IMG/VR virus record: IMGVR_UViG_3300042383_000546 | Location: 20,230-84,229 of that record | Length of the DNA stretch: 64,000 nt | Source: a virus | Direction: 5' to 3' (one strand) | Shown: piece by piece, positions 3,668 to 60,031 of the stretch | Position numbering within the stretch: the first letter of the stretch is position 1 | Layout of the letters: every line of letters begins with the position of its first letter | Notes under the pieces: model-generated | What the model was told of the DNA's origin: nothing | What the model saw: the letters and a program-made list of their open reading frames with translations, nothing else | Databases searched by the model: none | Position numbers and translations under genes: made by a program

Positions 3668-3668
3668 A

Positions 3669-32801: not shown

Positions 32802-33551
32802 TTATTTCTTTTTGCCATCCTCTTGAGTGGCATATTTAATACCCATAATTGTTCCAACTATCGAAAAAGCGTTTGTCAGCAACACACTAAACATATTACT
32901 CCAAGTAGAGCCAATTATTTGTGTGTCTTTTCCCGTTATCATAGCCAACCAATATAAAATAGTTGTTACAAGACCAACTCCAATTATAACAGATAAAGCA
33001 ACTTTAACAATAGTTTTTATTAACTCACTTTGACTTTTTTTAATCATCACATCCAAATCATTCAAAGCAGCGTTCTTTTCTATTTCTATTGAATTTTTAA
33101 GTTTTTCAGTGTTATCTAATTGATTTTTCAACTCTTTTGAAAGTTGGTCTATTTCTTTTTTGCTATTGACATTTTCAGTTATGTCAGTAGCAATTTTCAT
33201 TATTTTAGTTATAGTGTTGTTTTCATCGAATATAGGATTGTAAGTTGCTTGTAAATAAATAGCACTACCATCCATTTTCCTTCTTTCAAACTCTCCTTCA
33301 AAGAACTTACCACTTCTTAGTGTTTCCCAAAACTTTTTATACTCTTCTGACTTTGAATATTCGTAACTAACAAATATGCTATGATGTTTTCCTACAAGTT
33401 GTTTGTGGTCTTCATCTTCATATCCCATAGCACTTAAAAATATTGAGTTCATACCCAATATGTAACCATCAAGGTCAAAATATATAATAGCATTACTCCT
33501 ATTTATTGCCTCTAGCCTACTTAGTAACTCTTCCTTTGATAGGTTTCTCAC
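32802..33551 (-). CDS. PAS/PAC-domain protein with two C-terminal TM helices
   Basis: AINRSNAIIYFDLDG...GKHHSIF...FWETLRSG..FEGEFER...LQATYNPI...KIATDIT (chemoreceptor-type PAS). Confidence 0.85.
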   Translation of the reverse strand: MRNLSKEELLSRLEAINRSNAIIYFDLDGYILGMNSIFLSAMGYEDEDHKQLVGKHHSIFVSYEYSKSEEYKKFWETLRSGKFFEGEFERRKMDGSAIYLQATYNPIFDENNTITKIMKIATDITENVNSKKEIDQLSKELKNQLDNTEKLKNSIEIEKNAALNDLDVMIKKSQSELIKTIVKVALSVIIGVGLVTTILYWLAMITGKDTQIIGSTWSNMFSVLLTNAFSIVGTIMGIKYATQEDGKKK

Positions 33552-34986: not shown

Positions 34987-35700
34987 TTATAGTGCTTTGT
35001 CCTTATAGATAAGTGCTAAAAACCCGTCTAGACCTAACATTTTAAGTAAATAGCCTCTACTTTCAACAGGTACAGAAGACATTTGTGACAGCGTTGTACT
35101 ATCTATTGGTTCTAAGATTGCTTTTGTTCCTTTACTGATTGCTCTGTTGTAAGCTCCTGCATTGTAAGCAACCATAGCTTTATTAAGCTGACCTCCTGAA
35201 AGAATTGTAGTAAATCTTTCTAAAAGCCATCTTAAAATCATTGTACCTGCCATTACGTTGAAATTAGCATCTCTTTGTAGATTAGACAAAATACTACTTC
35301 TAAGACCTGCCGTTAAGGTTTTAGCCTTTAATAAATCAGGAACTCTTTGATTTAAAAGATTAACACTCTCTTGAGGTAATGGGCTATCGACTTCGCTTCT
35401 CCATTTTCTAGCCACTTCGTATATAGCCGTTGGTGTTACTTGCATAAGACCTGTAGCTTGAAACCTATTAGGAGCTGCCATAGTACCGCCACTTTCAGTA
35501 CCAATAAATCCGATAATCACACCAACAGGTATTTCATACAAAGTAGCCCATTTCTCTATGATTTTACCGTAGTTAGAATTAATCTGTTGAATCATTTTTA
35601 TGTTAGCAGCCTTAACTGATGGGGTGCTGTAATTATAAGTCCCTGCCTTAAATGAAGTTTTAATATCAGGAACTTTTAAAAATATCTTGGAGTAAGCCAT
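34987..35700 (-). CDS. Lytic transglycosylase (SLT, GH23)
   Basis: TESGG, ATGLMQV, AYNAG motifs. Confidence 0.9.
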   Translation of the reverse strand: MAYSKIFLKVPDIKTSFKAGTYNYSTPSVKAANIKMIQQINSNYGKIIEKWATLYEIPVGVIIGFIGTESGGTMAAPNRFQATGLMQVTPTAIYEVARKWRSEVDSPLPQESVNLLNQRVPDLLKAKTLTAGLRSSILSNLQRDANFNVMAGTMILRWLLERFTTILSGGQLNKAMVAYNAGAYNRAISKGTKAILEPIDSTTLSQMSSVPVESRGYLLKMLGLDGFLALIYKDKAL

Positions 35701-35858: not shown

Positions 35859-36440
35859 TTATTTCTTTTTTATGTACAAATATATTCCAAGTCCTAATAG
35901 TAAAATGCCTAAACCTAGCCCTTTCTTGTTTTTTCCCACAAATTCCACTATTTGTGCCCTTAGCATTCGTGCTTTTAGACCTCCCGCATATTCAGATATT
36001 TCCTTTTCTGCTTGAGGTGTACCATAAGCTCCAAAACCATAGTATCTTCTCTTTTTAAGTAGTCTTGAAAACTCCTCAGGTGTTTTTGCATTTTTCAGTT
36101 GCTCAGGGGTTACACCACCCATAGTCTTACTATAAAGCCTAACTATTTTATCGGTAGCACTATCCTGAACTGAGCGGAACTTTGCATAGTGGTCTGAGTT
36201 TTTGCATTCACCACCACTTCTGCAAGATGCACTCCTTTCGTTTGTAGGTGCAAGTGTACCTCTAGTAGCTAACGGCTGACCAATGAATTTCATACCGCTA
36301 GTATTGTTATTTGCTTTGAATACTGCTGATGTATAGTTAGCACTCTCAAAACGAGCTTGTCCTACCACAAACTTAGCTGCAGTAGGAGTAAAGCCCTGTT
36401 TAATAGCGGTATCGTATATTATTTGGTCGTAGTTAGCCAT
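35859..36440 (-). CDS. GH73/glucosaminidase-like muralytic enzyme with C-terminal membrane anchor
   Basis: QARFESANY...NNTSGMK...YAKFRS; C-terminal TM followed by KKK. Confidence 0.7.
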   Translation of the reverse strand: MANYDQIIYDTAIKQGFTPTAAKFVVGQARFESANYTSAVFKANNNTSGMKFIGQPLATRGTLAPTNERSASCRSGGECKNSDHYAKFRSVQDSATDKIVRLYSKTMGGVTPEQLKNAKTPEEFSRLLKKRRYYGFGAYGTPQAEKEISEYAGGLKARMLRAQIVEFVGKNKKGLGLGILLLGLGIYLYIKKK

Positions 36441-39400
36441 TATTTTTTCTTTTTAGCCATTTTCTCTTTTAACTGAGCCATCCTAGAGCCAACGATTCTT
36501 TGAGCTGATTCTTTAGCCTCTGCCTTTGAGTAACTCTTACCATAGTCCTTTTGAACTTGAGGTGCTACTTTTTTACGCTTTAGTAAAGACTCCTGAACAG
36601 ATTTTACTTTGTCAGCAAATTTTACTTTGCCACCTGAAGACATTTTTTCATTAACATACCAATCATATTCTATTTGTGGTTTTACATCTAATCCCTTTTC
36701 ATCTTTTAGTATAAAAGTTGCTCCTTTTTGATATTTTGACATTCTAATTATTGATTCCCATTCTTTGTCAGTTATTTTACTTCTTGGAACTCCTAATATA
36801 GTTATATCTTCTCTTGTAATTTCACCACCTTTAGCCATGTAGCCACCATCTTTGTAAAAATTCCCTGTTTTAATATTTTCAAAGTTTTTCTCTAAAGACT
36901 TTTTAGCTAGTTCTAGTGAAGAATAGCTACCTGCATATAGTCTATGATTTGAGTCATATACATTTCCGTCATCTTTGTGATAAAAGAATTTTCTACCCTC
37001 AACTTCAAAAGGCTGACCACCTTTTCTTGTCATACCACCTTTTGCCATTTTGGATTCAAAATTGTCCATAATCATTTTCAAAGTATCTCTCTTACCGCTA
37101 TAGTTTCTTGGCATTCTAGCGTGTATACCATTAATCTTAAATATTTGTACATCAACTTCTTTAGTACCTACAAACATTTTTAATTGTACGTCTTTACCAT
37201 CAACTTCTTCACTAATAAAATGCCACTTATTTGGCTCTTTCATGGCATCTTTCACCTTTTTTTCAAATGAGTCAGTTACTCCACCATCAGCCATTTGTTT
37301 TTTACCTAAAATTTGAGATAATTTTTCTTCTACTCTTTCCCTTACAACACTATCATGTACTCCTAAAACTTCATAAGGGTTATTACCTTGACCCGTTAGA
37401 GCCCAAAATCCTCTGAATGTCATTGTATCATTTATTTCTTTACCTAAATCATCGGTTGGATAATTTTTAATATACCAATCTTTAATTTTCATACCACTTC
37501 TAGCACCTTTAGGCATTACTCCACCTTTAGCCATTTTGTAATCAACTTTGACCCAATCTTTATTTGCTACTTTACCTTCTGCACCATACATTCCTTCAAA
37601 GAACTCTTTATCATTATCATCGTATTTGAAATATACTTTTCTAAACTTTCCATCATCAATTTTAGTTATTTTCAATTTCCCAAAACCTTTACGTTCATAA
37701 ACATCACCTACTTTTACTTCACCACCTTTAGCCATGTAGCCACCTTTCTCTAACATTGGTTCTATTTGCTTAGGATAATTGTTTTCAGGATAACTTTTTA
37801 CTAATCTTGCATAACCATCTATTTCTTCTTTAAGTTGCTCTTTAGTGCCATTATCCCCTTCAGAACCAACTTTTCTTAAATTTTCAGTTGGTTGCATACC
37901 ATCCGTATCTAATCTTACTTCATATTTATCTGAAAGGTAACCATCGTATATACCAATAATAGTACCATATCTCTCATTATCAACATCCCAAACAATTTCC
38001 CCTAATTTAAAATCATCAGAAGTTTGTTTTGAGTAATCTAATGAACCACCTTTTAATGCTGAATTTTTAACATAAACACCATCTAAAATATCTGAGCCTT
38101 TTAGCTTCAATGATTTATTATTCAGAGTTACCATTAACTCTTTAATATCTTCGTTTGGTATATATGTACTTGGAACTTTACCACCTTTAGCCATTTTACC
38201 TTCTGCTCTAAATTTTTCTAATAATGTATCAGGTAAAGGATTATCTAAATAATCAATATATCCTTTTGCAGATTCTATTTGCTTTTCTTTAGACATACCC
38301 ATAGATTTTTCTCCTGTTGGTTTACTTTCGTCTAAATCAATAATAAATCTAGTTCCTCTATTTGGGTTTAAAACCTCAATTACACCATTGTTGTTATTCT
38401 CTACAATACCATAACCTTTATAAATTTCTAAAATGGTATCTCCTATTTGAAAACCATGAATAAGCATACCTCCTAATTCCATTTCACCACCATCTTCAAA
38501 GAAACCGAATAGTTTAGTTTCTTTTGGTTTGCCACCTTCAAAATCTTCCAAATCTTTGTATACTGACTTCTGACCATCAGTAAATAGGAATTTACCTTTG
38601 TTTTCGCCTGAGTCTATTTTACCTATGAACTTGAACTCTTCACCGCTTTTGTCTCTATACCAACGTCCTGCAGTCATGCCACCTAAAGCATATAAACCAC
38701 CTTTTTCAGCTTTTTCCATTCTTACAGCTATTTCTTTAAGGTGCTGAGGTACGAAAGAGAATAAGTTAATTGACATTTCAGCTCTATAATTGTAAATAGA
38801 CGCACTCATAATGTCACTAACAGCTTCATAGAAGTTAGCGTCATCTGTGCCTGAATTTTCTACTACTTGTTTCTCGATTCCGAATAAACCATCTACATAT
38901 TTAGCACATCTTGCTAAACTCTCTTTTTCACTTTCTTTTGCGTTCTGCATGATTTCCATAGCAGATTCAAACTCTTTTACTGCAGTTCCGCAGATGTCAA
39001 AGTTTTCTGTTTGGTAACCGAATACGTCAATATTCTTTCCTGAACCGAAGTGTGCAGGTACTTTACCCCCTTTAGCCATTTTAGGCTTCAATTTGCCTTG
39101 TTCTACATAAGCATCAAATGAATTTTTAGATATACATTTTAAAATTGAATCATCTTTTTTGTAAAATAAGCAAACCTCATCATCTATACCTAATGATGAG
39201 TCTTTAATATAAACTTCCTCTTCACCCATCATATAGGAATTTCCTACTTGACCACCATCAGCCATTCTATATCCTTTACCTGATTTAGCAAAATCAACGA
39301 TTTCTTTTGCGTATTGATTGTCTTTATTTCCTGATACTGCTGTTGCAAAGTCAGATGCAGTTATCATTCGTCTACCAAGTCCTTGCATAATATTTGACAA

Positions 39401-42400
39401 ATCTGATTCTGTTAAGTTGTTTTCGTCTGAAAATCTTTCGACTCCTGACTTTCCTACACCTGTCATGGATGAAATCTGTTCTATAGTCAAATCTTTAATA
39501 CTTTTCATAGTTTTTGTTTTTCCACCATAAGCCATGTAGCCACCTTTCTCATAACGAACATTACTCAATAAATTGTATGCTATTTGTAAATCTTCATCAG
39601 CATAATTTGTTCCTGATTTTTCTTTAATTCTACGAGAAAAGTCTTCAAAGGAATTACCTGTTGCGTAAATATCATTCTCATAAGCAAAGTCTGCAATTTT
39701 TTCTGAATCACTTAATTCAATAGATTTTTTGATGTTGTCAGCTAAACGATGGTAACCCTCCATTCTTAACAAGTACTCGAAAGCTCCTGCTATTCCATTA
39801 CCATCCCAACCTGAATTTTGAGAAACTTTTACTGCAAAATCTCTAGTCTTTGCATCACCATGCCAATATTTAGAGTCGTATTTCTCGTTGATAGCATCAA
39901 ACTTTACTTTAAATTCAGGGTCGCTTGGACTTGGATAATCAGGTTTAACCGCAATTTCAGGTTTTTTTTCCAATATGCTAACTAGCTTTCTTGCTGCATC
40001 GTGATAATTGGCATCAGTAAAGGCATCTACGGCAGCTTGAGCCATAATTAATTCATAATCTGCACCTAATTTTTTAGGGGTTAAACCCTTTTGTGAAGCC
40101 ATTTTTCTGACTGCCAAATTTAATTCACCACCTTCAGCATAATTCATATTATTATTTTTTAATTCGTTTTCAGATTTAATATTTCCACCATAAGCCATTT
40201 TTTTGAAAGGATTGCCCTTTGGAAGAGCTTTATCTCTTAATCTTTTTAATCTAATATCGTGAAGTTTTTTAGCTAATTTATTCAATGATTCAATTTCATA
40301 TGATAAATACTCTATATGACCTGAATCTTGACTTTTTTCATCTAATAGTTTTTTTAGTTCTGATTGATATTCGTCTCTCTTTTTGATTGCACTATTCATA
40401 TCTTTTTCAATCTGCAAATCTATATCTTCATCAGTTTTACCCCCATCAGCCATTTTTTTATAACTTTCAACATCATACACAATTTCCAAGTCTTTCTTTT
40501 CTACTCTTACTATTGGAGGGTAAGCCCATTTTTTGTCTTCATTCAGAACTCGAATATCTATTTGTTCATCATCAGAAAATTTTTCAATATCTTCTTGAAT
40601 AACAACATATAATTGATTTGGGTCTTCATCGGGAAGTGGGTTTTTAATGATTACAATATCACCTATTTTTAATTTACCACCTTTAGCAAATCTTAATACT
40701 TCTTTATCATTTGCATTTGAACCTCCAAAAGATGTTGTTAAGTTGGTTTTTATTCCATCTTCCCATAATATCTCTTGACCTTTAATAGTTCCATGATAAT
40801 ATTCACCATTACCTAAATTCATTCTAATTTTATCCCCATTGGTAAGGTCTTTGTATTTAGTACCATAACCTATGTTTCTTCTTAAAATCCAATTACCTTT
40901 TGTTGAACCACCTTTAGCAAATTCATCAGCATTTTCCAAAATGGAAGTATCTAAATGCTTAATAGCCTCACTAAACCCACCTTTATATTCGTGTTGTTTA
41001 ATACCTTGTAAAGTGAAAGTATCTAATATATCTTGTTTTAATGGCTCTAAAGACTTACTAATCTTTTTTACTTCATACTGAAATGGCTCTTTTCCAAAAC
41101 CAAAGGTAATTGAAGCTGTTGCACCATCTTGCTTGTATGTGTAATCATAAGAGTCTTTATCGGACAATGTTAGTTTTACTGTCCTTTTTGTTTTTCCACC
41201 TTTTTCCATATATTGTTTATCTATATTAGACAATTTTATTAATAGTGTTGCGTAACTTTTGCCACAATCAATGTAAGTGAATTTGCCTTCCTCTTTCTCA
41301 ATAACAATTGATAAGTCACCCTCTAAACCTACTTGAATATTAACTTTTTCAGATAAGTCTATTTGTGCATCAGTATCGTAATCAGCCTCATGCAATTTGA
41401 CAACCTTATATCCCAAACTTTCTAAAGAATTGGCTATCTTTTTGGCTTTATCATTTGCAAAGTCTATATCTTGTTCCATGTCATCATAAATGTCCCCACC
41501 ATCAGCCATTTTATCTGCTGAATAAGAGTTGTATAATTCTACAAAGTAAGGTTTAGGATATTTTTTATATGCTTTGTTGTAAGCGGAATCACGAGCTGTA
41601 GCTCTTACCTTAAATTCTTTCTTTTCTATAATTTTATCGTCCTCATCTCTTAGTATAGCCTTAAACTCATATATCATAGGAGCTTTTTTAACAGCTCCAC
41701 CTTTAGCCATAGTTTCGTTAGGTGCAGATACTAATTTCCAATTTTCCCAAACATATCCATAAGGTTTAACCCAACCATAGTCTTTTTTGTAAAAGCTGTC
41801 TTTACCGTCAAAGAACGCATCTACTTTGTCTTTGCTATGAATTAAATCTTTTAACTCTTTATACTTTGATTTATCAACAATGTTAATCATAGAATAAATA
41901 GGCATATCCTTTGCTTGTTTGATTTTGAAGCCTTTTTCTCCTAATTTCTTTTGGCTTTCTACATACTCTTTAGCATCACTTTCATTATCGTACATTTCAA
42001 CAACACGAGGTACTGACTTACCATTATTGAACCTAGTAAAGAAAACCACATATTTTTTGCTTACCTCACCACCTTTAGCATATTTATTGTTTTCCCACTT
42101 GCTCCAATCAACTGCATTGATTAAATCTTGCAGACTTTCAAACCATTGTGTATCGTATGCACTACCCTCTAATTTAACGGCTTCAGTTTTTCTGCTTTTA
42201 ACAAATCTTTGAACAGCTATGGATTTTCTTCCCTCGTCAGTTGGCTCAAGCACCTCTTTGAATATAATAATATTTCCTTTTTTCTTTAAGATAGCCTCTT
42301 TCTTTGCGTCTGTTAAAATTCCACCATCAGCTAAATAAGGCTTTTTAGACGTTTGTTTATCTGTACGATTGGCTCTCATTTCATAGTAAACTTTACCTGT

Positions 42401-42721
42401 TTTTGAAATACGCTTTCCTGCAGGTAAGGACTTCCTATCACCATCTCTAGCAATATTATCCTTCTTTCTTTCCTCTTTTGCAGGGGCTTTAGCAGGTGTT
42501 TTTTTAGCCACAGACTTTTTAGCAGCCTTAATTTTTTCAGCTACTTTAGATACTTTTTTAGTTTTTACGGCTTTTTTTTCAGCAGCCTCCATTTCCTCTA
42601 ATTCTTTTTCAAGTTTAGATTTTTGTGCCTTCAATGGAGCTATCAAATTAGAAGGGGTAGCCTTACTTTTTATGCCGTTTTCTAATTTATCTATTTTAGC
42701 TTTAAGTTCCTGCTTTGTCAT
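36440..42721 (-). CDS. Giant modular polyprotein-like protein (2093 aa) punctuated by [MFYL][AE]xGG motifs
   Basis: About 27 motif copies separate mutually unrelated 50-190-aa segments; basic N- and C-termini. Confidence 0.85.
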   Translation of the reverse strand: MTKQELKAKIDKLENGIKSKATPSNLIAPLKAQKSKLEKELEEMEAAEKKAVKTKKVSKVAEKIKAAKKSVAKKTPAKAPAKEERKKDNIARDGDRKSLPAGKRISKTGKVYYEMRANRTDKQTSKKPYLADGGILTDAKKEAILKKKGNIIIFKEVLEPTDEGRKSIAVQRFVKSRKTEAVKLEGSAYDTQWFESLQDLINAVDWSKWENNKYAKGGEVSKKYVVFFTRFNNGKSVPRVVEMYDNESDAKEYVESQKKLGEKGFKIKQAKDMPIYSMINIVDKSKYKELKDLIHSKDKVDAFFDGKDSFYKKDYGWVKPYGYVWENWKLVSAPNETMAKGGAVKKAPMIYEFKAILRDEDDKIIEKKEFKVRATARDSAYNKAYKKYPKPYFVELYNSYSADKMADGGDIYDDMEQDIDFANDKAKKIANSLESLGYKVVKLHEADYDTDAQIDLSEKVNIQVGLEGDLSIVIEKEEGKFTYIDCGKSYATLLIKLSNIDKQYMEKGGKTKRTVKLTLSDKDSYDYTYKQDGATASITFGFGKEPFQYEVKKISKSLEPLKQDILDTFTLQGIKQHEYKGGFSEAIKHLDTSILENADEFAKGGSTKGNWILRRNIGYGTKYKDLTNGDKIRMNLGNGEYYHGTIKGQEILWEDGIKTNLTTSFGGSNANDKEVLRFAKGGKLKIGDIVIIKNPLPDEDPNQLYVVIQEDIEKFSDDEQIDIRVLNEDKKWAYPPIVRVEKKDLEIVYDVESYKKMADGGKTDEDIDLQIEKDMNSAIKKRDEYQSELKKLLDEKSQDSGHIEYLSYEIESLNKLAKKLHDIRLKRLRDKALPKGNPFKKMAYGGNIKSENELKNNNMNYAEGGELNLAVRKMASQKGLTPKKLGADYELIMAQAAVDAFTDANYHDAARKLVSILEKKPEIAVKPDYPSPSDPEFKVKFDAINEKYDSKYWHGDAKTRDFAVKVSQNSGWDGNGIAGAFEYLLRMEGYHRLADNIKKSIELSDSEKIADFAYENDIYATGNSFEDFSRRIKEKSGTNYADEDLQIAYNLLSNVRYEKGGYMAYGGKTKTMKSIKDLTIEQISSMTGVGKSGVERFSDENNLTESDLSNIMQGLGRRMITASDFATAVSGNKDNQYAKEIVDFAKSGKGYRMADGGQVGNSYMMGEEEVYIKDSSLGIDDEVCLFYKKDDSILKCISKNSFDAYVEQGKLKPKMAKGGKVPAHFGSGKNIDVFGYQTENFDICGTAVKEFESAMEIMQNAKESEKESLARCAKYVDGLFGIEKQVVENSGTDDANFYEAVSDIMSASIYNYRAEMSINLFSFVPQHLKEIAVRMEKAEKGGLYALGGMTAGRWYRDKSGEEFKFIGKIDSGENKGKFLFTDGQKSVYKDLEDFEGGKPKETKLFGFFEDGGEMELGGMLIHGFQIGDTILEIYKGYGIVENNNNGVIEVLNPNRGTRFIIDLDESKPTGEKSMGMSKEKQIESAKGYIDYLDNPLPDTLLEKFRAEGKMAKGGKVPSTYIPNEDIKELMVTLNNKSLKLKGSDILDGVYVKNSALKGGSLDYSKQTSDDFKLGEIVWDVDNERYGTIIGIYDGYLSDKYEVRLDTDGMQPTENLRKVGSEGDNGTKEQLKEEIDGYARLVKSYPENNYPKQIEPMLEKGGYMAKGGEVKVGDVYERKGFGKLKITKIDDGKFRKVYFKYDDNDKEFFEGMYGAEGKVANKDWVKVDYKMAKGGVMPKGARSGMKIKDWYIKNYPTDDLGKEINDTMTFRGFWALTGQGNNPYEVLGVHDSVVRERVEEKLSQILGKKQMADGGVTDSFEKKVKDAMKEPNKWHFISEEVDGKDVQLKMFVGTKEVDVQIFKINGIHARMPRNYSGKRDTLKMIMDNFESKMAKGGMTRKGGQPFEVEGRKFFYHKDDGNVYDSNHRLYAGSYSSLELAKKSLEKNFENIKTGNFYKDGGYMAKGGEITREDITILGVPRSKITDKEWESIIRMSKYQKGATFILKDEKGLDVKPQIEYDWYVNEKMSSGGKVKFADKVKSVQESLLKRKKVAPQVQKDYGKSYSKAEAKESAQRIVGSRMAQLKEKMAKKKK

Positions 42722-42758: not shown

Positions 42759-45260
42759 TTATACCAATAACTTTAATGCCTCTAAAGTATCTTCAGCGTC
42801 CTTATCACCCGTTTCAGCTAATATTTCTAAAGCAGCTATTGTTTCTAAGATTTCCTCTCTTGTAGCTTCAGCTTCAGGTTCGGGTTCTATGTCTTCAGGC
42901 TCAGGGACAACAACAGTAGGTGGAGGCTCTTGGGCTATCGGAACTACTGCCTTTTGCTCTTCTAGTTTGGTTTCCATTTCGTCTACAGAAGGCTCTACAA
43001 CCTGAGCTACCAATTCGTCATTTTTAACGAAATCTACAACCTTTTCTCCACCTTTCTTTTTGTCCACAACCATACCTAGACCTGTTTCCCCGCTTTTTCC
43101 TTTGTAGTCTATGTATTGGTCTTCTCTAATATCTGAAGGTGGAACGAAGTCACCTATTCCGTATTTACGCTTTGCAACCTCAACGATTTTTTCCATAAAA
43201 GTGCCAATGTATTCTAGCTCCTTTCCTGCAGGATAAGGTCTTTGGTAGCCTTCGGCAATAATATCTTCCATAGGAATATCAGCCACTAAGTAGTTACTAA
43301 CTCTGTCTGCATCAAATAACTTTTTTAGAATCCATGTTTCCCAAGAACGAGCAAACAGCTCCACAGCACTTGTCCAATATTTAGTTCTACGAACACCGCC
43401 AATTATGTATCTTTTATACTTAACTGTAGGGTCTAAATAGACATATTGAAAGTAGGAATAGGCTGTTTTATGGTATAAATAGCTAGTTTTTAGCTTCATT
43501 GGTATTTCATAGCTTTCAAGTCCGAACTGCTTGATTATGTAGCCAAATACCTTTACTTGTCTAGGAAGTTGTGCTTCTTCTACTACTGCAAAATCGTCTA
43601 AATCAAGCTCATTAATAGTCTCTTCAATTGTTGCTTTGATTTCTATTGATTTAGATACCCACCTTCTTTGTTGAGCATTCCAAACGCTGTAAGTAGGCAC
43701 TTCTTCAACTTCCTCAGCCTTAAATTTCATAGGAACTCTAGGAGTATATAAGTCATTACCCTTATAAATAAAGCTGAATAGCTCTTTAAAAAGAGTTTTC
43801 AATTCAGAATCAGGGCTGTAACCTTCAGAGGCAAACTGATTGGTTGCTCTTTGTTGGTCTAGCTCCACTATTACGTTGTCAAAGTAGTGACCCCACTCGT
43901 GAGCCACAGACCCGTCACCATTACTTTTAGTAAGGTTAATATCTTTTGTTTGAGGAAAATAGGCTGCAGCGTGTCCTTTACGTCCTTTTGCCCCGAAAGC
44001 TATCTTTAACTTACCTAGCTGATTTGCTTTTTTGATGTCAATATTTATGATTTCAGCCATGTCGCTGATGGCAGCTAAGAAGTGTTTTGTATGCTCCTTA
44101 CTCCACTTATCGTCTACATATTGACCATAATTCACAGCAGAAAAGCCAAACTTATTAACAACTTCTGCAGGTGTGATTTCAGGTATCTTGTAGCCTCCTG
44201 TTCTTTTAATGTAAGAAAGGGGTGCTTTTGTGTTAATAGCTTGTTCTTTAGGAGCAGCAGTTTCTTTCTTTGTTTCGTCCTTTGTTTCAGGCTTTTCAAA
44301 CCATGACCAATCATTAGGTCTTGGAGCTGAATTAGTAATTTTAGTTGCAAAATTCGCTTTCTCCCTAGTTATTTTTCCCTCTAAAAACTTAACAGCGAAA
44401 TCTCTGAATTTCTCTATATCAGCCTTATATAATGGTTTTGCATAAGAACTAATCTGCCATTCTCTGTCCATAGCCGATAAGAGTTGTCTTTTATCCATTT
44501 TTTGATATTCAGCTACCCTTTCCTGATTAGCAGTTACGAACTTAAATTCTCTTTCTTTAATTGCTGAAATTAACTCAATAGATTTCTCTTCGCTTATTGG
44601 CTCTTTTTCTTGAGCTTCAATCCAAATAACTTTTGCAGCATCACTACGTCTAAACAACATATTTTCAAATCTTGAACCAAAAAGTTCATTGATTATTTTG
44701 TCTACAAGACTGTAACTATACATAAAAGCTGACCTAATATTTCTGTTCTGCTTTAAGGATTCCTCTATGGCTTTCTTGGTATCTTCGTCTGCAGTAGCAT
44801 AGTCAGGGTTAAAAAATGTTTCAATAGCTTGAGGCATTTTCATTTCCCTATAGTAATCAGTTAAGGTTCTTATTTCTTCTACATTAAAACAAGCATCTAG
44901 CTTATTTTGAAGGTTCTCTAAAAAGAGTACATAGCTCTTACGCATACCCTTTTCGTCTTTAGGTCTTGTAGGAACAGCCTCTCTTATCTTTACTTTTAAA
45001 AACGCTGCACCCGAAGTAACACCATTGTCCTTTTGGGCTTGTACGTCAATCGGTGACCATACGTTGTCCTTCTTAACCATGTTATATGCCATTACAGCAT
45101 CGTCCTCTAAGTCAGTTAGGACTTTGGAATTGATTAACCGAAAGGCTGCTTTTTCCTTTTTAGTCTGTGCTACACGACCAATATCTTTGAACTCTCTATT
45201 AGATTGCTTTTCTTGTAGCCTTTGTTCTACCTGTTCCTTTATTTGATTTAAGTCAGCCAT
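42759..45260 (-). CDS. Large polyvalent protein with LPD1-like zincin domain
   Basis: FGFSAVNYG...AFGAKG...VAHEWGHYFD...YWTSAVELFARSWE...YP. Confidence 0.75.
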   Translation of the reverse strand: MADLNQIKEQVEQRLQEKQSNREFKDIGRVAQTKKEKAAFRLINSKVLTDLEDDAVMAYNMVKKDNVWSPIDVQAQKDNGVTSGAAFLKVKIREAVPTRPKDEKGMRKSYVLFLENLQNKLDACFNVEEIRTLTDYYREMKMPQAIETFFNPDYATADEDTKKAIEESLKQNRNIRSAFMYSYSLVDKIINELFGSRFENMLFRRSDAAKVIWIEAQEKEPISEEKSIELISAIKEREFKFVTANQERVAEYQKMDKRQLLSAMDREWQISSYAKPLYKADIEKFRDFAVKFLEGKITREKANFATKITNSAPRPNDWSWFEKPETKDETKKETAAPKEQAINTKAPLSYIKRTGGYKIPEITPAEVVNKFGFSAVNYGQYVDDKWSKEHTKHFLAAISDMAEIINIDIKKANQLGKLKIAFGAKGRKGHAAAYFPQTKDINLTKSNGDGSVAHEWGHYFDNVIVELDQQRATNQFASEGYSPDSELKTLFKELFSFIYKGNDLYTPRVPMKFKAEEVEEVPTYSVWNAQQRRWVSKSIEIKATIEETINELDLDDFAVVEEAQLPRQVKVFGYIIKQFGLESYEIPMKLKTSYLYHKTAYSYFQYVYLDPTVKYKRYIIGGVRRTKYWTSAVELFARSWETWILKKLFDADRVSNYLVADIPMEDIIAEGYQRPYPAGKELEYIGTFMEKIVEVAKRKYGIGDFVPPSDIREDQYIDYKGKSGETGLGMVVDKKKGGEKVVDFVKNDELVAQVVEPSVDEMETKLEEQKAVVPIAQEPPPTVVVPEPEDIEPEPEAEATREEILETIAALEILAETGDKDAEDTLEALKLLV

Positions 45261-45262
45261 GA

Positions 45263-48200
45263 TTATTTGAAATTAGATTTACCAAATTGTGATTGCATAA
45301 TTCTAGCGTCTTCGTCTTCGTCTCCATCTATAAAACCACCCATAGCATAACTTTTTTGAGGTATTTTGTTCTTTACAAGTGCTATTGCAGGTTCTAGTTC
45401 CCTTTCTGTGCTAATATTTTTGATTGAAATTGCTTTGTCCTTAAAGTATTTGATTAATTCCTCAAAAGTAAGGTGTTTATCCTCCATTTTAGACTGAAGC
45501 GGACTTTTAGGCTTGTTTACAAGGTTTACTCCGTCATCTGAAAACGACACCACTTCCCATTGGTCATTACCACCACTTGAATAAACTATTGTACCTACAG
45601 CTAACATAGGCATACCATCTGATAGTCCTAAATCGTCTGCAGTTATGTAGTGCTCGTTTACCATCATTTCCTCCATTTCAGGCTCTATTTCAACTTCAAC
45701 CTCTACTTCTACTTTAGGGAATAAATGATTTTTAAGTTCTGTTTGGTAGTCAGTTTCCCCACCTTCAGCCATTTTATTATTGTATTTTAAAATTATTTGT
45801 GGGTTTGAGCCCAAATAATCATAATACTCACTACTTAATTTTTGATTATATTGATTTTCAATATCCTTTTTAGTGTTTCCGTAAAATTCATCAATAGTTG
45901 TTTCAAATTTTTGTTCAATTTTTTCTACACCATCAGGTAAGCCAAATATTTCCCAATTTAACTTTTGCTCTTTTGTAGGTTTTATTAAACTATCGTTTTT
46001 ATAGTATTCAGTAGCATTTTCTATATGTATTAATTCTGCAGACAGCTTTCCTTTCACTTTTCCACCTTTACCAAATTTTGCGACTTTCTTTAATTTAATT
46101 GAATATTGTGCGTGTCCTGTATTTTGGTTGTATTCCATATTTACTGAATCGGCATCGAAAAATTCAGCACTTGAAGTAGCCTCTTTATGTAATTTTTCAG
46201 CCATGCTTGTCGTATAATTCTCATCAAGTCCAATAATTAAAGAATTTGAATCTTCATCAATATAATAAAACTTTATAGGCTGTACCTTCTTTATAAATAT
46301 TTCTATTTTTTGAGCTAAAAGTTGATTTGTTAATGAGTGTAAATCACCTGTAATTCCACCTTCAGCCATAGAATGTTTACAACCGCATGAGCTTACTATT
46401 TCATGGTCTTTCATCATTTTGCCACCATACTTGTATTCTTTGCCACTTGTATAAATACTTTCAGGAATATCCCCGCCATCAGCAAAAGAGACACCTCCAC
46501 CGCTTTCATTTATTTTTGAAAGGATTTCCCTGTTGGTCATCATTTTACCTTCAAATTCACGCTTAGTATCGTCAGAAACGGCATTACGAGTAATAACCAC
46601 CTCACCCCCCTCCATTTCTAAAGGTTGGTTAGTTGATTTGTTTACAGCTTTGATACCGCCTTCGCTATGTCTTTTACCAACTAAAACACCGCCAACGTTA
46701 CCGCTGCCATGTGAGAAGTAGTCTTTTACGCTTTTATCGTCAGGGTTTATTTCACCACCTGCTTTATAGTAACCACCTTTTTCCATTTTGTTATTTTTAT
46801 GTTTTCTAACCATAAAGCCATTTGGCAATAATTCAAAGCCAAACTTCTCATAGTAAGATATTAGGTATTCTCTAGTTATTTTTTCCTTTTTAGCTTCATC
46901 CTTTATTTTATTGTGTCGAGGTATCGGCTCTAAATAAACATCTATTTCGTTCTTATCTGCTAATTCTAAAAGCTCCTTTAGTTTTTCTTTGCCATCTACA
47001 CTTTCGTACCTTTTCTCAAAAAGGTCTAAAATCACATGATTATCCTCACTTGACATTTTACTGAACGCATTTGGTATTGATACCATTATGGTCATCTTAT
47101 CCGATACACCACCTTTATACCAATCTTGGTATTCTTTGTAAAACTCTGTAACACCCCCATTAGCCATTTTATTTTGGATTTCCATGTAGTCTAATCTTTC
47201 AATTATTTCGTTTGCCTGTCTTATGGGCTTTATTGATTTGTAAATCAGAGCTTTGTTAAATAGTGAATTATCTAGTAAATCCCCCTTAGCCATTTTATTT
47301 TGGCTTTCCATGTATTCTAGTTTCTCATAGTAGTCAATCATTTCGTCTAAATGCTGTAAAGCAATAGTTTCCTGAACGATTGGGTTATCTGAGTGTTCTG
47401 ATTCTGTTTTCATACCCTTTCTGAGCTGCTCTTCGGCATAATCTAAAGGAACGTCCTTTTCTTTGGCTATTTGCTCAATAGTCTTTGAAGGCTTAAATAA
47501 TTCAAGACCTAACTCCATTTTCATTAAATCGTGCTGAGAAGGTATTTCCATACCCATTTCAGCAGTAGTTTTACCATTAAGTATATCTTTTATCTTTCTC
47601 TCTTGTCTTTCGATTCTATTTTTCAAGTCATAGGTATTATAATCTTTATAAACGTCAATACCCATTTCTTTTAATCTATTTTTTATATATCCGTCTTTAG
47701 GACACTCCAATCTTTCTTTGTCATTTGGGTCATCACCAAGACAAACGGAATCCCCGATTATAAACTTATATCCCCTAAAACCGCCCTCTTCTATTCTGAC
47801 TTCAGGTATACCTTTGGCAACAATTTCAGCTATGGCATCGGCTTTTTCTTTGGCTTTTGCCTCAATAATAGATAGTTGGAGTTTTTGTTTTGCTAGTGTT
47901 TTAGCTGCATTTGACAAGTTGGGGAAAGAAGATTTTTGAGCTCTGTCAGTATAACCTAATAAAATAGGAACTGAATCAGAACTTACCACTTTCAAATCAC
48001 CATTTGGCATTTGTATTGTGTACTTATGTACTATATCCCTTCCCGTTTCAGCACTTATGTCTGCCTGTGTCCAATCAGATACTCTTTTTGAAATAGCTTC
48101 ACCTTCTGATTTAGTAAATGAAGTGTCCCATTGAAATGACCATGTATAAGAAATAAGTTTAGCTCCATTTAAGCCTACTAATGGTGGGTCAAAAACTATT

Positions 48201-49363
48201 GTTTCCATAGGTCTGAATCTACTACTTGCACTTACAACTTTACCAAAATCAGTAGCACCACCATCTGCATACCTTATATCAGGATTTTTGGAATCAAAGG
48301 TAGTGTTTGTGCCATCTGCAAGTTTGATTTGATTTGATTGAAAAACACAATAATAGTCGTTACCATCTTCGTTAGGAACTCTAAACCCGTCATATTCTTT
48401 AGATATTTTAGGAGTATATTCATCAGTTACATACATATTTTTTATATTCAAAAAACATTGTAAATTTTTATCCCCCCAAATATGTCTCACTGAAAAATAA
48501 AATCTTGGTTCAATTTTCCTTAAACCATATTGTTTAGTATACTCATCGAATTCTTCGTCAGTTCTATTTCCTCTAAATTCTTTAATAGCTTTGCCATTAA
48601 CATATTCAACTGCATATGGCATAAATTCATAGAATAAATCTCCGCTTGTTCCATGATACACTACTAACGGCTCTCCGTTTTCGTCTACAACCTTTGAGGC
48701 ATTTTCGGGGTCATTTTCCCAATCCCCAAACCATGATTTGAACTCAGGGGTACGGACTAAATGCCATTGTTCGTGATTTAGATTGCTTGGCTTACCATTT
48801 GGAGCTAAATGCTTTGACATATCCCCGCCTAAGTGATACTCACCAATCGGTTCAGGGTCATAAAATGTTCTGTTATCAAACCCGCATTTGTGACAAATGT
48901 ATTTATCAGATTCATCAGAATCAGAGGTATTCCAATGCCACCCACAATTAACGCAAGTGATTTCTTGACCTACAGAACCGCCTTTTTCCATTAAGTCATC
49001 GTCCTGAACGTATGCAGCTTTAACCTGCTGACCTGCCTTCTTTTTAAGGAATTTATTTACTCTTGCAAATCCCCATGCTTGTCTGCTATTTGGAGCTCCA
49101 CCTGTAATTGTAGGTCTGTGAGAAGTAGAATAAGCACCCATACCTCTACGCATAACTGCTTTTAGGGTTGCAACGCTTACCTTATTTTTTGGGTGACTTT
49201 CGTTGTAATCTTTTGCCTTTTGGCTTAAAGTACCTAATATGCTTTCACTTAGTTCAATTCCTTTGGCTGAGGCTTTAGAACTAGCACTTCCGACCTTGTT
49301 TTTGTCAGAGCCATAAATTCTGTCTTTTTTAGGAGCAGGGGTTTTTGATAGGCTTTTCGGCAT
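45263..49363 (-). CDS. Polyvalent protein (1366 aa): DUF5824-like, Zn ribbon, ADP-ribosyltransferase (ART-PolyVal), DUF5661-like, GNAT-like and HxxGG/EGGE domains separated by xxxGG motifs
   Basis: RRGMGAY..SHRP..WGFARVN; CVNC..CHKC; FKSWFGDW..GEPLVVYHGT..NQIK; QLRKG..ESEH..IALQHL.E..DYYEKL; YYEKFGF. Confidence 0.8.
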   Translation of the reverse strand: MPKSLSKTPAPKKDRIYGSDKNKVGSASSKASAKGIELSESILGTLSQKAKDYNESHPKNKVSVATLKAVMRRGMGAYSTSHRPTITGGAPNSRQAWGFARVNKFLKKKAGQQVKAAYVQDDDLMEKGGSVGQEITCVNCGWHWNTSDSDESDKYICHKCGFDNRTFYDPEPIGEYHLGGDMSKHLAPNGKPSNLNHEQWHLVRTPEFKSWFGDWENDPENASKVVDENGEPLVVYHGTSGDLFYEFMPYAVEYVNGKAIKEFRGNRTDEEFDEYTKQYGLRKIEPRFYFSVRHIWGDKNLQCFLNIKNMYVTDEYTPKISKEYDGFRVPNEDGNDYYCVFQSNQIKLADGTNTTFDSKNPDIRYADGGATDFGKVVSASSRFRPMETIVFDPPLVGLNGAKLISYTWSFQWDTSFTKSEGEAISKRVSDWTQADISAETGRDIVHKYTIQMPNGDLKVVSSDSVPILLGYTDRAQKSSFPNLSNAAKTLAKQKLQLSIIEAKAKEKADAIAEIVAKGIPEVRIEEGGFRGYKFIIGDSVCLGDDPNDKERLECPKDGYIKNRLKEMGIDVYKDYNTYDLKNRIERQERKIKDILNGKTTAEMGMEIPSQHDLMKMELGLELFKPSKTIEQIAKEKDVPLDYAEEQLRKGMKTESEHSDNPIVQETIALQHLDEMIDYYEKLEYMESQNKMAKGDLLDNSLFNKALIYKSIKPIRQANEIIERLDYMEIQNKMANGGVTEFYKEYQDWYKGGVSDKMTIMVSIPNAFSKMSSEDNHVILDLFEKRYESVDGKEKLKELLELADKNEIDVYLEPIPRHNKIKDEAKKEKITREYLISYYEKFGFELLPNGFMVRKHKNNKMEKGGYYKAGGEINPDDKSVKDYFSHGSGNVGGVLVGKRHSEGGIKAVNKSTNQPLEMEGGEVVITRNAVSDDTKREFEGKMMTNREILSKINESGGGVSFADGGDIPESIYTSGKEYKYGGKMMKDHEIVSSCGCKHSMAEGGITGDLHSLTNQLLAQKIEIFIKKVQPIKFYYIDEDSNSLIIGLDENYTTSMAEKLHKEATSSAEFFDADSVNMEYNQNTGHAQYSIKLKKVAKFGKGGKVKGKLSAELIHIENATEYYKNDSLIKPTKEQKLNWEIFGLPDGVEKIEQKFETTIDEFYGNTKKDIENQYNQKLSSEYYDYLGSNPQIILKYNNKMAEGGETDYQTELKNHLFPKVEVEVEVEIEPEMEEMMVNEHYITADDLGLSDGMPMLAVGTIVYSSGGNDQWEVVSFSDDGVNLVNKPKSPLQSKMEDKHLTFEELIKYFKDKAISIKNISTERELEPAIALVKNKIPQKSYAMGGFIDGDEDEDARIMQSQFGKSNFK

Positions 49364-49610: not shown

Positions 49611-49646
49611 GACCCGTTTTTCGAGAGATTGACGGGTTTATTTTTT
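49611..49646 (+). terminator. Terminator-like hairpin
   Basis: GACCCGT...ACGGGTT followed by a T-run, at a convergent junction. Confidence 0.55.
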
Positions 49647-50877
49647 ACCCTAACCTCTTAATATCGTCTGAGAATCCTTTTGATATTGAATGCCAATCTA
49701 GACTCTTAACATACTTCAAAGCCTTTTCTTTTATCAATTTTTGGTCTAGTGCGTTACTACGCTTATCTTTATCTACCTGACTAATCACTTCGGCTATTTC
49801 ATAGATATTACACTTCCAACGTATGATATTATCAATATTGTGAACGTCAGGGGATAGTTCCTCTAAATAGTAGCACCTTTCACCACTCTTACCCCCTAAT
49901 TCTCCAAAAGAAGTGTGTCTAGGCATAATTACGGGTGTACAAGTTGCCATAGCCTCCGTAACTGTAAGTTCCCAACCCCCACCTGTTGCTGTGGTGATAA
50001 AGCAATCTGAGGCATTATATATCTTATTAAGGGTTTCTACACTAGCTCCTTTATTGTAATCTTCTTCAGAAGGAAACATATAATCTACACCCTCTACAAG
50101 TGGAGTTTGCTGCATTACCCTCTTTAAGTCCCAACCTAAAGGGTCTTTTGGATTCATGTGCAGATATAAAAATGCGTTTTCGTTAAATTGCTTCTTGTAT
50201 TCCAAAAAGCCAAATATGGTTGTAGGTATATCCTTTCTAGGTTGATTTCTATTGATATTCGTAACAATAAACTTATCAGAATTGCTACCAAAATATCTAT
50301 TCCTGAATACTTGAATTTCAATTTCAGGCATGAGAAAGAAGTCTTTCGTGTTTGTACCATGTGGCACAACCTTCACTTTTCCCTTCAAATCAGGTCTTTG
50401 AATAAGCACCTCTTTACGTCCAAATTCTGTGTAAGTAGCTAGAACGTCAAAAAATTCAAGTCCAACACATAGGTTTGGTACAAGTGTAGAATCTACAGGA
50501 AAATACAATATTGATTTAAAATTTGGCTTATTAGCTAGTCTCTTTTCCTCTTTAAACTTCTTTAAGTGAGGTACTAAACCAATAGTAACACCCAAGTCTT
50601 GAAGTATAAATAATACGTCATAGTCATTATCAAGTACTGATTTAAGGAAGGTATATCTACCAAAATCGTCCTTTTGATTGTCCGTAAGTTTAGCTGAAAT
50701 AATACGAGTTCCGTCCTCTTCTGTATAAGGGTCTCCAAAATAGTTAATGGCTACAATATCGAACTGAGCCTGAGCTCCTAATTGCTTTTTCCAATTCTGC
50801 ATTAAATTCTTTGATACAGATGCAAACCCCGTAAAGCAGTTGTAATCAAAAAGGCAAAGTACTTTTATTTGTTTCAT
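49645..50877 (-). CDS. GT4-family glycosyltransferase
   Basis: TGFASV, PHG, NRNQPRKD, GGGWELTVTEAMATCTPVI. Confidence 0.85.
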   Translation of the reverse strand: MKQIKVLCLFDYNCFTGFASVSKNLMQNWKKQLGAQAQFDIVAINYFGDPYTEEDGTRIISAKLTDNQKDDFGRYTFLKSVLDNDYDVLFILQDLGVTIGLVPHLKKFKEEKRLANKPNFKSILYFPVDSTLVPNLCVGLEFFDVLATYTEFGRKEVLIQRPDLKGKVKVVPHGTNTKDFFLMPEIEIQVFRNRYFGSNSDKFIVTNINRNQPRKDIPTTIFGFLEYKKQFNENAFLYLHMNPKDPLGWDLKRVMQQTPLVEGVDYMFPSEEDYNKGASVETLNKIYNASDCFITTATGGGWELTVTEAMATCTPVIMPRHTSFGELGGKSGERCYYLEELSPDVHNIDNIIRWKCNIYEIAEVISQVDKDKRSNALDQKLIKEKALKYVKSLDWHSISKGFSDDIKRLG

Positions 50878-51661: not shown

Positions 51662-52441
51662 TTATCTATGGCAAAAAGCACCACAACTTACCTCTTTTTT
51701 CAATGATTTGTATAGTTTTTCAATATCAGGAAACATTAATTTTTCGTTTTCGCAATCAATCATTAAATCCCTGAGCCTCTTTCCATTACCCATAATTGAG
51801 TAGAATTTTTTTCTCTTGTCTTGTATTTTCTCTTCAAATTCCAAAACTTCCATAAACTCATTATAGTTCAAATGGAACATAGCTTTGTACTCTTTTTCAC
51901 TTTTGAAGAAACACATTCTACAACCCCCTCTCATCATATAAACAGGGAAGTTTGGGTGCATACCATGTTGTTTTAAGATTTCCTCACAGTCATTCCTATC
52001 GTAACCATCTGCAATCAAAGGATAACTATATTTCACATTTGGCATAGCCTCTAAACTACCTGTTCTTCCTTGTTCATCAAAATTAAACCCAATCATTAAC
52101 TCACATTCTCCTTGCTCCTTTAAGTATTTATCTATGGGTGCTGCTTTGAAATAATTGGTACAAAACCTCATTTGTTGGCTTGGCATAACTTTACAAGCTA
52201 CTATCAAGTCCTCTAAACTTGTATATAGCTCATTTTTATACATTTTGCCACCTAGTATTCTAACTAAATTGAAATCACCCCTATGAAAGTCTTTAAGATA
52301 TTGTTCTACTTTATCTATTCTTTCATACATTTCTTTATGTTCTGCACCTGTATCACACCAAATGGCAGTTGCTCCTTTTCCGTATAGGAGACACATGGTA
52401 GTGCTTTCAACACCGCCACTAAACGATATATACTTTTTCAT
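51662..52441 (-). CDS. PAPS-reductase-family (PP-loop) protein
   Basis: ISFSGGVES, DTGAE, RFCT..FK, RGGCRMC. Confidence 0.85.
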   Translation of the reverse strand: MKKYISFSGGVESTTMCLLYGKGATAIWCDTGAEHKEMYERIDKVEQYLKDFHRGDFNLVRILGGKMYKNELYTSLEDLIVACKVMPSQQMRFCTNYFKAAPIDKYLKEQGECELMIGFNFDEQGRTGSLEAMPNVKYSYPLIADGYDRNDCEEILKQHGMHPNFPVYMMRGGCRMCFFKSEKEYKAMFHLNYNEFMEVLEFEEKIQDKRKKFYSIMGNGKRLRDLMIDCENEKLMFPDIEKLYKSLKKEVSCGAFCHR

Positions 52442-58565: not shown

Positions 58566-58593
58566 GGTTTTTTTTTAATAAAAGTAATTAATT

Positions 58594-60021: not shown

Positions 60022-60031
60022 ATAATTAATT

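Follow-up and report, generated by a model that had tools for sequence, protein, structure and literature searches.

We analysed a 64,000-nucleotide stretch of viral DNA (hereafter the window), positions 20,230 to 84,229 of IMG/VR virus record IMGVR_UViG_3300042383_000546. The record comprises 84,229 bases, its completeness is about 90% according to CheckV and its guanine-plus-cytosine content is 36%; DNA nearly identical to the window is found in 24 lake-water or freshwater metagenome runs. The subject of this analysis is P0001, a giant protein encoded on the minus strand upstream of genes for a glucosaminidase-like protein and an SLT lytic transglycosylase. On the other side of P0001 lie an 833-residue open reading frame (ORF), ORF833, and then a second long ORF, 45263-49363. 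P0001 and ORF 45263-49363 share one minus-strand frame, and both carry many copies of a pentapeptide of the type [MFYL][AE]xGG, which we call the joint. The coordinates of these features are collected in Table 1.

The strict motif occurs 24 times in P0001, compared with 0.42 on average, and never more than 3, among 2000 composition-preserving shuffles. Adding the near-variants AEKGG1338 and MSSGG2027 (the numbers are residue positions) brings the joints to 26, among 32 GG dipeptides overall. ORF 45263-49363 contains 8 strict copies, or 9 including YSSGG. In a six-frame translation of the window the motif appears 34 times, of which 32 are in these two ORFs and only 2 elsewhere. Four junctions of P0001 are doubled (1057/1063, 1338/1344, 1408/1414 and 1657/1663), and a fifth, YKDGG-Y-MAKGG, spans residues 1957-1966. 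These figures bear out an earlier reading of this DNA made from its letters and ORFs (the sequence-only reading), which had put the number of copies at about 27 and had described doubled motifs. Across 51 family members, about 23% of the joints are doubled in the GG-Y-MAKGG form, and the logo derived from the 1370 GG dipeptides of these proteins is [KY]-[MYF]-[AE]-[KD]-G-G-x-[VMLTI].

The same reading had remarked that many motifs begin with an ATG preceded by AAA. This is indeed so for P0001, where ATG opens 16 of the 26 motifs and is preceded by AAA in 8 of these, as would be expected if each ATG-led motif initiated a separate small protein. Nevertheless, such internal translation starts are highly improbable. 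Across the family, M occupies the first position in only 43% of the joints, whereas 33% have Y, F or L, and the codons TAT and TTT cannot initiate. Furthermore, genes with Ala as the second residue have GCA in 36 cases, GCT in 15 and GCG in 3 (a crude count over uncurated starts), as opposed to GCT in 86% of the joints. The GG dipeptide and the hydrophobic residue downstream of it would also be left unexplained.

Modules between the joints

Cutting P0001 after each motif yields 21 segments of 62-196 residues, which show no mutual similarity in BLASTP at E<1e-5; modules 5 and 6 clustered together under loose single linkage only and came apart under strict criteria. The sequence-only reading had anticipated about 22 mutually dissimilar segments of 50-190 residues and had viewed the protein as independent modules strung together, with the motif at their boundaries. 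If so, it argued, the segments should form compact folds, have homologues among standalone genes and occur in other sets or orders in relatives, whereas motifs lying inside domains or a colinear, invariant arrangement would speak against it. The results presented below support the string of modules on each of these points, although the folds concern only the two modules modelled.

The homology between family members stops at the joint. Among 6259 BLAST high-scoring segment pairs from the 51 proteins, 65.5% of the 5183 internal starts and 54.5% of the 5982 internal ends fall within 8 residues of a motif, compared with 19% and 18%, respectively, at random. The most frequent start is the first motif residue (M) and the most frequent end is just behind GG. 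This clustering is in part expected from the shared motif, yet it shows that the homology stops there. Domain assignments point the same way. Eight motif proteins gave 17 Pfam domain hits, none of which includes a motif; the next motif lies 0-11 residues past the end of the Pfam domain in 11 of 15 cases, and a 69-residue LPD11 domain is bracketed by motifs with 3 and 4 residues to spare.

All of the 50 other long homologues of P0001 (1155-2226 residues) carry 9-27 strict motifs; of the 90 shorter homologues, 84 have at least two. The best local alignments span just 3-50% of P0001, so all homologues are mosaics. When the 51 proteins were split at the motif, they gave 834 segments in 281 strict clusters. 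The 34 proteins that have the same N-terminal module display 34 distinct module strings, and module order differs in 235 of the 504 pairs that have at least four modules in common. No single relative contains more than 10 of the 21 modules of P0001. Only the N-terminal module, a central group and the tail keep a fixed position. As both the set of modules and their order vary, the arrangement is not colinear and invariant.

A tblastn search of a phage collection gave no match and a single-protein query for related loci returned none, but seven loci were obtained with an alignment as the query. One of them, L005, is syntenic with the window. In six loci (L002, L003, L004, L006, L007 and L008), the array is divided among two or three shorter genes. 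In loci that show both, gene A consists of the N-terminal module and cassettes, and gene B of DUF2958, module 14 and cassettes; the Lys-rich tail is present in four of the five copies of gene B examined. P0001 thus looks like a fusion of gene A and gene B. The record of one relative (G001, locus L002) has inverted terminal repeats.

The N-terminal module, a coiled coil rich in Lys and Ala, is also the first module of 33 other long homologues and is found in the separate gene A in L002-L004 and L007. Its invariant residues are R92, D93, R96, K97, G102, K103, G109, Y112, Y113, E114, R116, N118, R119 and D121, and it has no match by Pfam or Protein Data Bank (PDB) sequence search. The Lys-rich tail at the other end of P0001 is common to many shorter motif proteins of the DUF2958 type, and module 14 also follows DUF2958 in shorter motif-bearing proteins. 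P0001 as a whole belongs to no Pfam or PHROG family. Searches with P0001 and its parts gave nothing significant in Pfam, PHROGs or PDB sequences, and the ESM Atlas gave no usable lead.

Two modules could be modelled with confidence. In an AlphaFold2 model of residues 1205-1520, built on a 61-row alignment, the central module is predicted to be a hairpin followed by four helices with a predicted local distance difference test (pLDDT) score of 96-98, and module 14 a small beta domain with a lower score, whereas module 15, which has few homologues, falls below 60. Residues 1-11, 137-141, 194-239 and 304-316 of the model have pLDDT values below 50, and each of these stretches covers part or all of one of four joints. 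In this model, then, the joint lies in linkers of low confidence that separate confidently predicted domains.

The central module is also found on its own. In a library of 1.84 billion proteins it has 133 representatives at E<=1e-3, of 61-2271 residues. It occurs alone in proteins of about 130-220 residues and within large proteins with or without the joint. No motif is present in 54 of the 57 new representatives of at most 300 residues (some short ones may be contig-end fragments), and among the 64 longer ones 31 have at least four motifs and 18 have none. As the short proteins are mostly motif-free, the joint belongs to multi-module strings and not to the module. Its start is conserved as HFGGGxNIxVFGYxTxxFDIC with helices after it, including in proteins P0143-P0263. 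Structure comparison returned generic helical bundles only (VIA wide search, best Z 8.3). Foldseek against the PDB found nothing at E<=0.001, and the matches in BFVD were uncharacterised phage proteins with a best E of 1.8e-4. A PHROGs search with ten small central-module proteins gave nothing. Judged by sequence, the central module defines a widespread family that is in neither Pfam nor PHROGs.

The company that P0001 keeps identifies its class. Polyvalent proteins are a class described in phages and conjugative elements (Iyer, Burroughs, Anand, de Souza and Aravind 2017, PMC5512222). P0001 itself has no signature domain. However, the adjacent ORFs contain ART-PolyVal, LPD1 and MPTase domains, and some homologues have LPD11, ART-PolyVal, Zeta toxin and DUF2958. 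ART-PolyVal, DUF5824, DUF5661, LPD1 and the glucosaminidase and SLT neighbours are polyvalent hallmarks according to that paper, and they assign P0001 to the class. With its many unrelated domains and linked signature domains, P0001 is a member of the polyvalent proteins, and we are very confident that it is a modular one shuffled at the joint.

The joint as DNA

The joint is conserved not only as a peptide, a point that the sequence-only reading missed, along with the part the joint plays as a boundary of recombination. Allowing one mismatch at most, ATGGCTRAWGGTGG occurs 16 times in the window compared with 0.09 expected, and all occurrences are within P0001 and ORF 45263-49363. The joint corresponds to a direct repeat of 14 nt (family D1, 15 copies), or of 27-39 nt if doubled, and the longest exact repeat in the gene, of 27 nt (family D3), is a doubled joint present in two copies. 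Over 32 nt, copy 2 matches at 100% identity a joint of L005 that stands in a non-homologous context. A blastn comparison of the P0001 gene with its L005 homologue reveals three homologous blocks, each of which starts and stops at joints, and eight hits of 26-39 nt with 88-100% identity, which are doubled joints amid unrelated flanks. The Asp-form joints (the MADGG joints at residues 405, 757, 1153 and 1810) contain GATGGTGG or GATGGGGG. GATGGTGG resembles the Chi octamers of E. coli and Haemophilus.

Codon counts in 15 motif ORFs from eight viruses show that the joint is conserved at synonymous positions. Ala is encoded by GCT in 98 of 114 cases in the motif and in 317 of 675 outside it, the first Gly by GGT in 117 of 145 versus 474 of 902, Lys by AAA in 57 of 62 versus 1306 of 1695, and Asp by GAT in 35 of 37 versus 666 of 929. 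The second Gly shows no GGT enrichment (62 of 145 versus the same 474 of 902). The bias holds virus by virus and ends at the third base of the second Gly codon. In similar contexts outside the motifs GCT accounts for 58% of the Ala codons of [MFY]A[KD] (n=102) and GGT for 68% in [KD]GG (n=53). Other residues conserved at 90% or above have AAA in 31 of 54 cases, GGT in 11 of 21, GCT in 11 of 16 and GAT in 6 of 14, although these numbers are small. Translation accuracy and the influence of neighbouring codons were considered as causes of the bias, and neither is supported by these control contexts and conserved residues.

A passive linker could produce part of this picture. The joint would then be a structurally favoured hinge, recombination would be random, survivors would be those that break in linkers, and the DNA would have no role. 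Viable mosaics are indeed expected at domain boundaries, the joint is located in low-confidence linkers of the model, and these genomes use its codons GCT, GGT, AAA and GAT more often than any synonymous alternative. However, the synonymous bias far exceeds that of the same contexts outside the motifs and of other conserved residues, near-identical islands of 26-39 nt are found amid unrelated flanks, and a bulky hydrophobic residue is unusual in a plain flexible linker. We consider this explanation unlikely.

Natural variants were sought in short-read contigs from four lake runs, compared at 95% identity or above. In a contig of run X10, the 225-nt cassette of module 7, between FAKGG601 and FAKGG678, is replaced in frame by 201 other letters, with flanks of at least 255 nt on each side; both lengths are multiples of three. 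In all, run X10 shows four joints, at which 8 of 8 ends lie no more than 3 nt from the motif. Ten contig ends are loose; a motif is no more than 3 nt away from four of them and no more than 20 nt away from eight. Altogether 12 of 18 breakpoints are found at most 3 nt from a motif, compared with 8.5% at random.

We lean slightly towards the joint DNA being a recombination substrate. P0001 is best read as an in-frame cassette array of about 21 small, independently folding modules, the functions of almost all of which are not assigned, and the cassettes lie between the conserved N-terminal module, the conserved central pair and the conserved Lys-rich tail. The joint DNA, a 14-nt core extended to 27-39 nt when doubled, would be the substrate of short-homology, frame-preserving recombination, by which co-infecting or co-resident relatives would re-assort cassettes with domains and reading frame left intact. 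The encoded peptide would act as a flexible hinge. The string, delivered or made early, would act on the host as a multi-effector, as suggested by its class.

Several points weigh against this interpretation. Recombinants with breakpoints elsewhere are lost to selection, so that boundaries in linkers are expected even without a DNA signal. The substitutions in the joint keep their chemical character (M, Y or F; A or E; K or D; a hydrophobic second residue after GG), which indicates selection on the peptide, and a pure DNA role leaves this peptide-level selection unexplained. The 14-nt core is short for homologous recombination, and 27-39 nt are reached by doubled joints only. Motif copies and homologous modules share ancestry; hence the P values for codons and breakpoints overstate independence. 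For the other three joints in run X10 the sides are short (23-41 nt), and the shared joint sequence may by itself explain them. Since assemblies tend to break at repeats and branch points, the contig breakpoints are supportive but not conclusive. Confident models cover only two modules, P0001 itself matches no Pfam or PHROG family, and virion delivery and an effect on the host are presumed from the class.

Another reading is a short linear binding motif, with the many copies of the peptide each binding a host factor or a component of the virus, such as its capsid, its membrane or a part of the genome-delivery apparatus, for example for packaging of the string. The peptide is conserved, exposed, multivalent and common to two or three proteins of the locus. 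Such a motif has no known partner, and it would explain neither the boundary function nor the synonymous conservation, which makes it decidedly improbable.

The neighbouring peptidase and cleavage at the joint

A further possibility, in keeping with the sequence-only reading, is that a protease of the virus, of the host or acting in cis recognises the joint and cuts there, so that single effectors are released from the string either before it is packaged or once it has entered the cell. The idea is compatible with re-assortment of cassettes, and we hold it only tentatively. The peptide is conserved over five to eight positions in exposed linkers of low pLDDT, as a cleavage site would be, and the modules occur elsewhere as small separate proteins. 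Lambda gpH, whose C-terminal end is trimmed, carries two [FY]ATGG copies in that region, an example that the sequence-only reading had named correctly. In this protein (NC_001416, locus L016), FATGG733 and YATGG778 lie in a Gly-rich C-terminal region outside TMP_2 and Tape_meas_lam_C and are each followed by an aromatic residue. Unlike the joints, they are only two and bound no modules, and no homology between gpH and P0001 was found.

Polyvalent proteins have been proposed to be processed by zincin-like peptidases (PMC5512222), and the zincin-like gene ORF833, itself free of the motif, sits between both motif ORFs. Residues 454-461 of ORF833, HEWGHYFD, are an HExxH motif with an Asp three residues on, which is the signature given there for the phage-type MPTase, and none of these four residues (H, E, H and D) varies among 50 sequences. 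ORF833 has 178 homologues, and in 105 of the 120 listed metagenomic proteins the identity is 45-60% over 540 residues. The family is very conserved, with a mean column identity of 47%, and ORF833 ranks with the best-conserved genes of the locus, while the flanking arrays are hypervariable. The ORF833 model has a pLDDT of 80.8. VIA-align superimposes it on the catalytic domain of lethal factor with a Z of 10.7 and a root-mean-square deviation of 4.2 over 184 aligned residues in the range 166-520; unrelated rows of the comparison reach a Z of 7.9 at most, about 3 units lower. Foldseek alone found nothing at E<=0.001. By its motif and its predicted fold ORF833 is a predicted zincin-like MPTase of the kind found in phage-type polyvalent proteins.

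We considered ORF833 as a dedicated joint protease, which it may be, but its co-distribution with the motif is poor and does not support the idea. An ORF833-like gene is present in none of five records of motif-bearing relatives, which are 46-75% complete by CheckV, one of them with terminal repeats. Conversely, where an ORF833 homologue with about 25-35% identity occurs (loci L011-L013 and L015), its large neighbours contain 0-1 motifs. Only 3 of 158 motif proteins contain HExxH, versus 1 in shuffles.

Proteases of other types fared no better. A Cys-His protease in the central module was suspected from C1244 and H1327, which are invariant in 34 close homologues, but was rejected. The Cys is outside the columns conserved at 90% or above in 48 sequences and the predicted fold is not papain-like. 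The sequence-only reading had drawn an analogy with the clan CE proteases of viruses, which the data do not support. Peptidase_C5 and Peptidase_C48 have no match at E<=0.1 in the record, about 90% complete at 84 kb, in which the family of the African swine fever virus (ASFV) type was not searched. The C39 peptidase (PF03412) also has no match there, while its control matched in 7 of 14 genomes. Furthermore, the adenain consensus is (M/I/L)XGG, with a hydrophobic residue three places before the cut, whereas in the joint logo, [MYF]-[AE]-[KD]-G-G, it would stand four places before a cut after GG. Finally, a protease site leaves the conservation of synonymous sites unexplained.

Likenesses, neighbouring genes and meaning

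Several known systems resemble parts of this organisation. Adenain, ASFV pS273R and coronavirus PLpro cut viral polyproteins after Gly-Gly, as deubiquitinases do with polyubiquitin. The precursors share with P0001 a repeated xxGG at the boundaries of their units, but here the C5 and C48 families have no match and the hydrophobic residue is shifted by one place. Collagen-like repeats are exchange points in the host-range proteins of Streptococcus thermophilus phages, and 17-bp repeats flank the vls cassettes of Borrelia. As in P0001, short in-frame repeats flank variable segments and mark points of exchange. In contrast to these systems, the repeat of P0001 parts whole unrelated domains instead of variants of one, up to 27 times per gene, and neither a silent cassette store nor a dedicated recombinase is seen here.

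Effectors packaged in virions include the internal proteins and Alt of T4, the Dar proteins of P1 and the virion RNA polymerase of N4. Their purpose, to enter with the DNA and act immediately on the host, may be that of P0001 as well, but each of them is a separate protein that carries a targeting or processing signal of its own. Those of P1 and N4 are mentioned in PMC5512222. The effector cocktail suggested by the sequence-only reading would, by analogy, fit the polyvalent class through the neighbours and homologues with ART-PolyVal, Zeta toxin, LPD1 and LPD11. The closest likeness is with the polyvalent proteins themselves, which that paper describes as giant multi-domain proteins beside ART-PolyVal, LPD1 and a zincin-like MPTase and as mosaic. 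They are given 2 to 15 domains per protein there, compared with about 21 very small modules in P0001. The words "linker", "glycine", "GG motif" and "boundar" are absent from the main text of PMC5512222, so that a uniform junction peptide, its conservation in DNA and cassette exchange are not described in it. A literature search on motif strings found nothing relevant among the hits listed, and searches on shuffling and linkers, on the Pfam names and on membrane-containing viruses with polyvalent proteins found no description of the joint. In these searches we met no published account of an array with a single standard joint whose peptide and DNA are both conserved.

Table 1. Features of the P0001 locus, in window coordinates (aa, amino acids; res, residues; numbers after joint peptides are residue positions)
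Feature	Coordinates	Strand	Remarks
SLT lytic transglycosylase gene	34987..35700	(-)	downstream of P0001; Pfam PF01464; PHROG endolysin or lytic tail protein
Glucosaminidase-like gene	35859..36440	(-)	downstream of P0001; Pfam PF01832
P0001	36440..42721	(-)	polyvalent cassette-array protein, 2093 aa, 21 modules
C-terminal Lys-rich tail, res 2027-2093	36443..36643	(-)	
Doubled joint, 27-nt exact repeat, copy 1	36821..36847	(-)	family D3
Doubled joint, 27-nt exact repeat, copy 2	37718..37744	(-)	family D3
Module 14, res 1349-1412	38486..38677	(-)	small beta domain, pLDDT 73-92
Central conserved module with leading joint, res 1215-1348	38678..39079	(-)	beta-hairpin and four-helix bundle (model)
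Module 7 cassette	40682..40906	(-)	225 nt, replaced in X10 contig
N-terminal conserved module, res 1-134	42320..42721	(-)	coiled-coil
ORF833	42759..45260	(-)	833 aa, zincin-like metallopeptidase and LPD1
HEWGHYFD of ORF833	43878..43901	(-)	res 454-461
ORF 45263-49363	45263..49363	(-)	second motif-bearing polyvalent protein, 1366 aa; DUF5824, ART-PolyVal, DUF5661; upstream of P0001
LADGG130	42320-42334	(-)	P0001 joint
YAKGG214	42068-42082	(-)	P0001 joint
MAKGG338	41696-41710	(-)	P0001 joint
MADGG405	41495-41509	(-)	P0001 joint
MEKGG505	41195-41209	(-)	P0001 joint
FAKGG601	40907-40921	(-)	P0001 joint
FAKGG678	40676-40690	(-)	P0001 joint
MADGG757	40439-40453	(-)	P0001 joint
MAYGG842	40184-40198	(-)	P0001 joint
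YAEGG861	40127-40141	(-)	P0001 joint
YEKGG1057	39539-39553	(-)	P0001 joint
MAYGG1063	39521-39535	(-)	P0001 joint
MADGG1153	39251-39265	(-)	P0001 joint
MAKGG1215	39065-39079	(-)	P0001 joint
AEKGG1338	38696-38710	(-)	P0001 joint
YALGG1344	38678-38692	(-)	P0001 joint
FEDGG1408	38486-38500	(-)	P0001 joint
MELGG1414	38468-38482	(-)	P0001 joint
MAKGG1510	38180-38194	(-)	P0001 joint
LEKGG1657	37739-37753	(-)	P0001 joint
MAKGG1663	37721-37735	(-)	P0001 joint
MAKGG1730	37520-37534	(-)	P0001 joint
MADGG1810	37280-37294	(-)	P0001 joint
MAKGG1892	37034-37048	(-)	P0001 joint
MAKGG1962	36824-36838	(-)	P0001 joint
MSSGG2027	36629-36643	(-)	P0001 joint
MEKGG125	48977-48991	(-)	ORF 45263-49363 joint
YADGG365	48257-48271	(-)	ORF 45263-49363 joint
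MANGG733	47153-47167	(-)	ORF 45263-49363 joint
MEKGG860	46772-46786	(-)	ORF 45263-49363 joint
FADGG960	46472-46486	(-)	ORF 45263-49363 joint
MAEGG999	46355-46369	(-)	ORF 45263-49363 joint
MAEGG1198	45758-45772	(-)	ORF 45263-49363 joint
YSSGG1261	45569-45583	(-)	ORF 45263-49363 joint
YAMGG1339	45335-45349	(-)	ORF 45263-49363 joint

No terminase, portal or HK97-type capsid protein was named among 29 other ORFs of the window searched against PHROGs, 19 of which were also searched against Pfam; this negative does not decide the virus type. Other genes of the window include that of a 2813-residue fibre protein (6586-15027, minus strand) with collagen triple-helix repeats, about 100 short Gly-rich repeats of the type xxS[TF][VI]xGG and a C-terminal Peptidase_S74 chaperone domain. 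Five glycosyltransferase-like genes are found at 3-4742 (plus strand), 49645-50877 and 53943-54629 (both minus strand), and one of the five, which is similar to family 9 heptosyltransferases, adjoins the giant fibre gene. A 216-residue protein (32802-33452, minus strand) has a clear PAS domain (PAS_3, E 4e-12), a sensor domain that is unusual for a phage. Genes for N6/N4 and C5 DNA methyltransferases and a PAPS-reductase-like gene (57318-60126 and 51662-52441, minus strand) probably serve DNA modification.

Polyvalent proteins are regarded as the earliest weapons that a phage or plasmid brings to bear on entering a cell. The repertoire described here consists of standard-sized cassettes with one standard joint, and its natural variants differ by whole cassettes. 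The 51 proteins provide a catalogue of about 280 clusters of small modules, which are prime candidates for host-takeover or anti-defence activity. As the joint gives the module boundaries, each module can be cloned and tested singly. If the joint were also a cleavage site, a new protease specificity would be defined. It is rather doubtful that the joint is a dual-purpose "domain shufflon", that is, both a dedicated DNA hotspot of 14-39 nt that re-deals more than 250 effector cassettes in frame and a peptide cut site, but if true, this would amount to an exon-shuffling-like combinatorial evolution of an anti-host arsenal within a prokaryotic virus. Should the joint drive exchange, it would represent a simple, general and engineerable rule for the frame-safe shuffling of domains.

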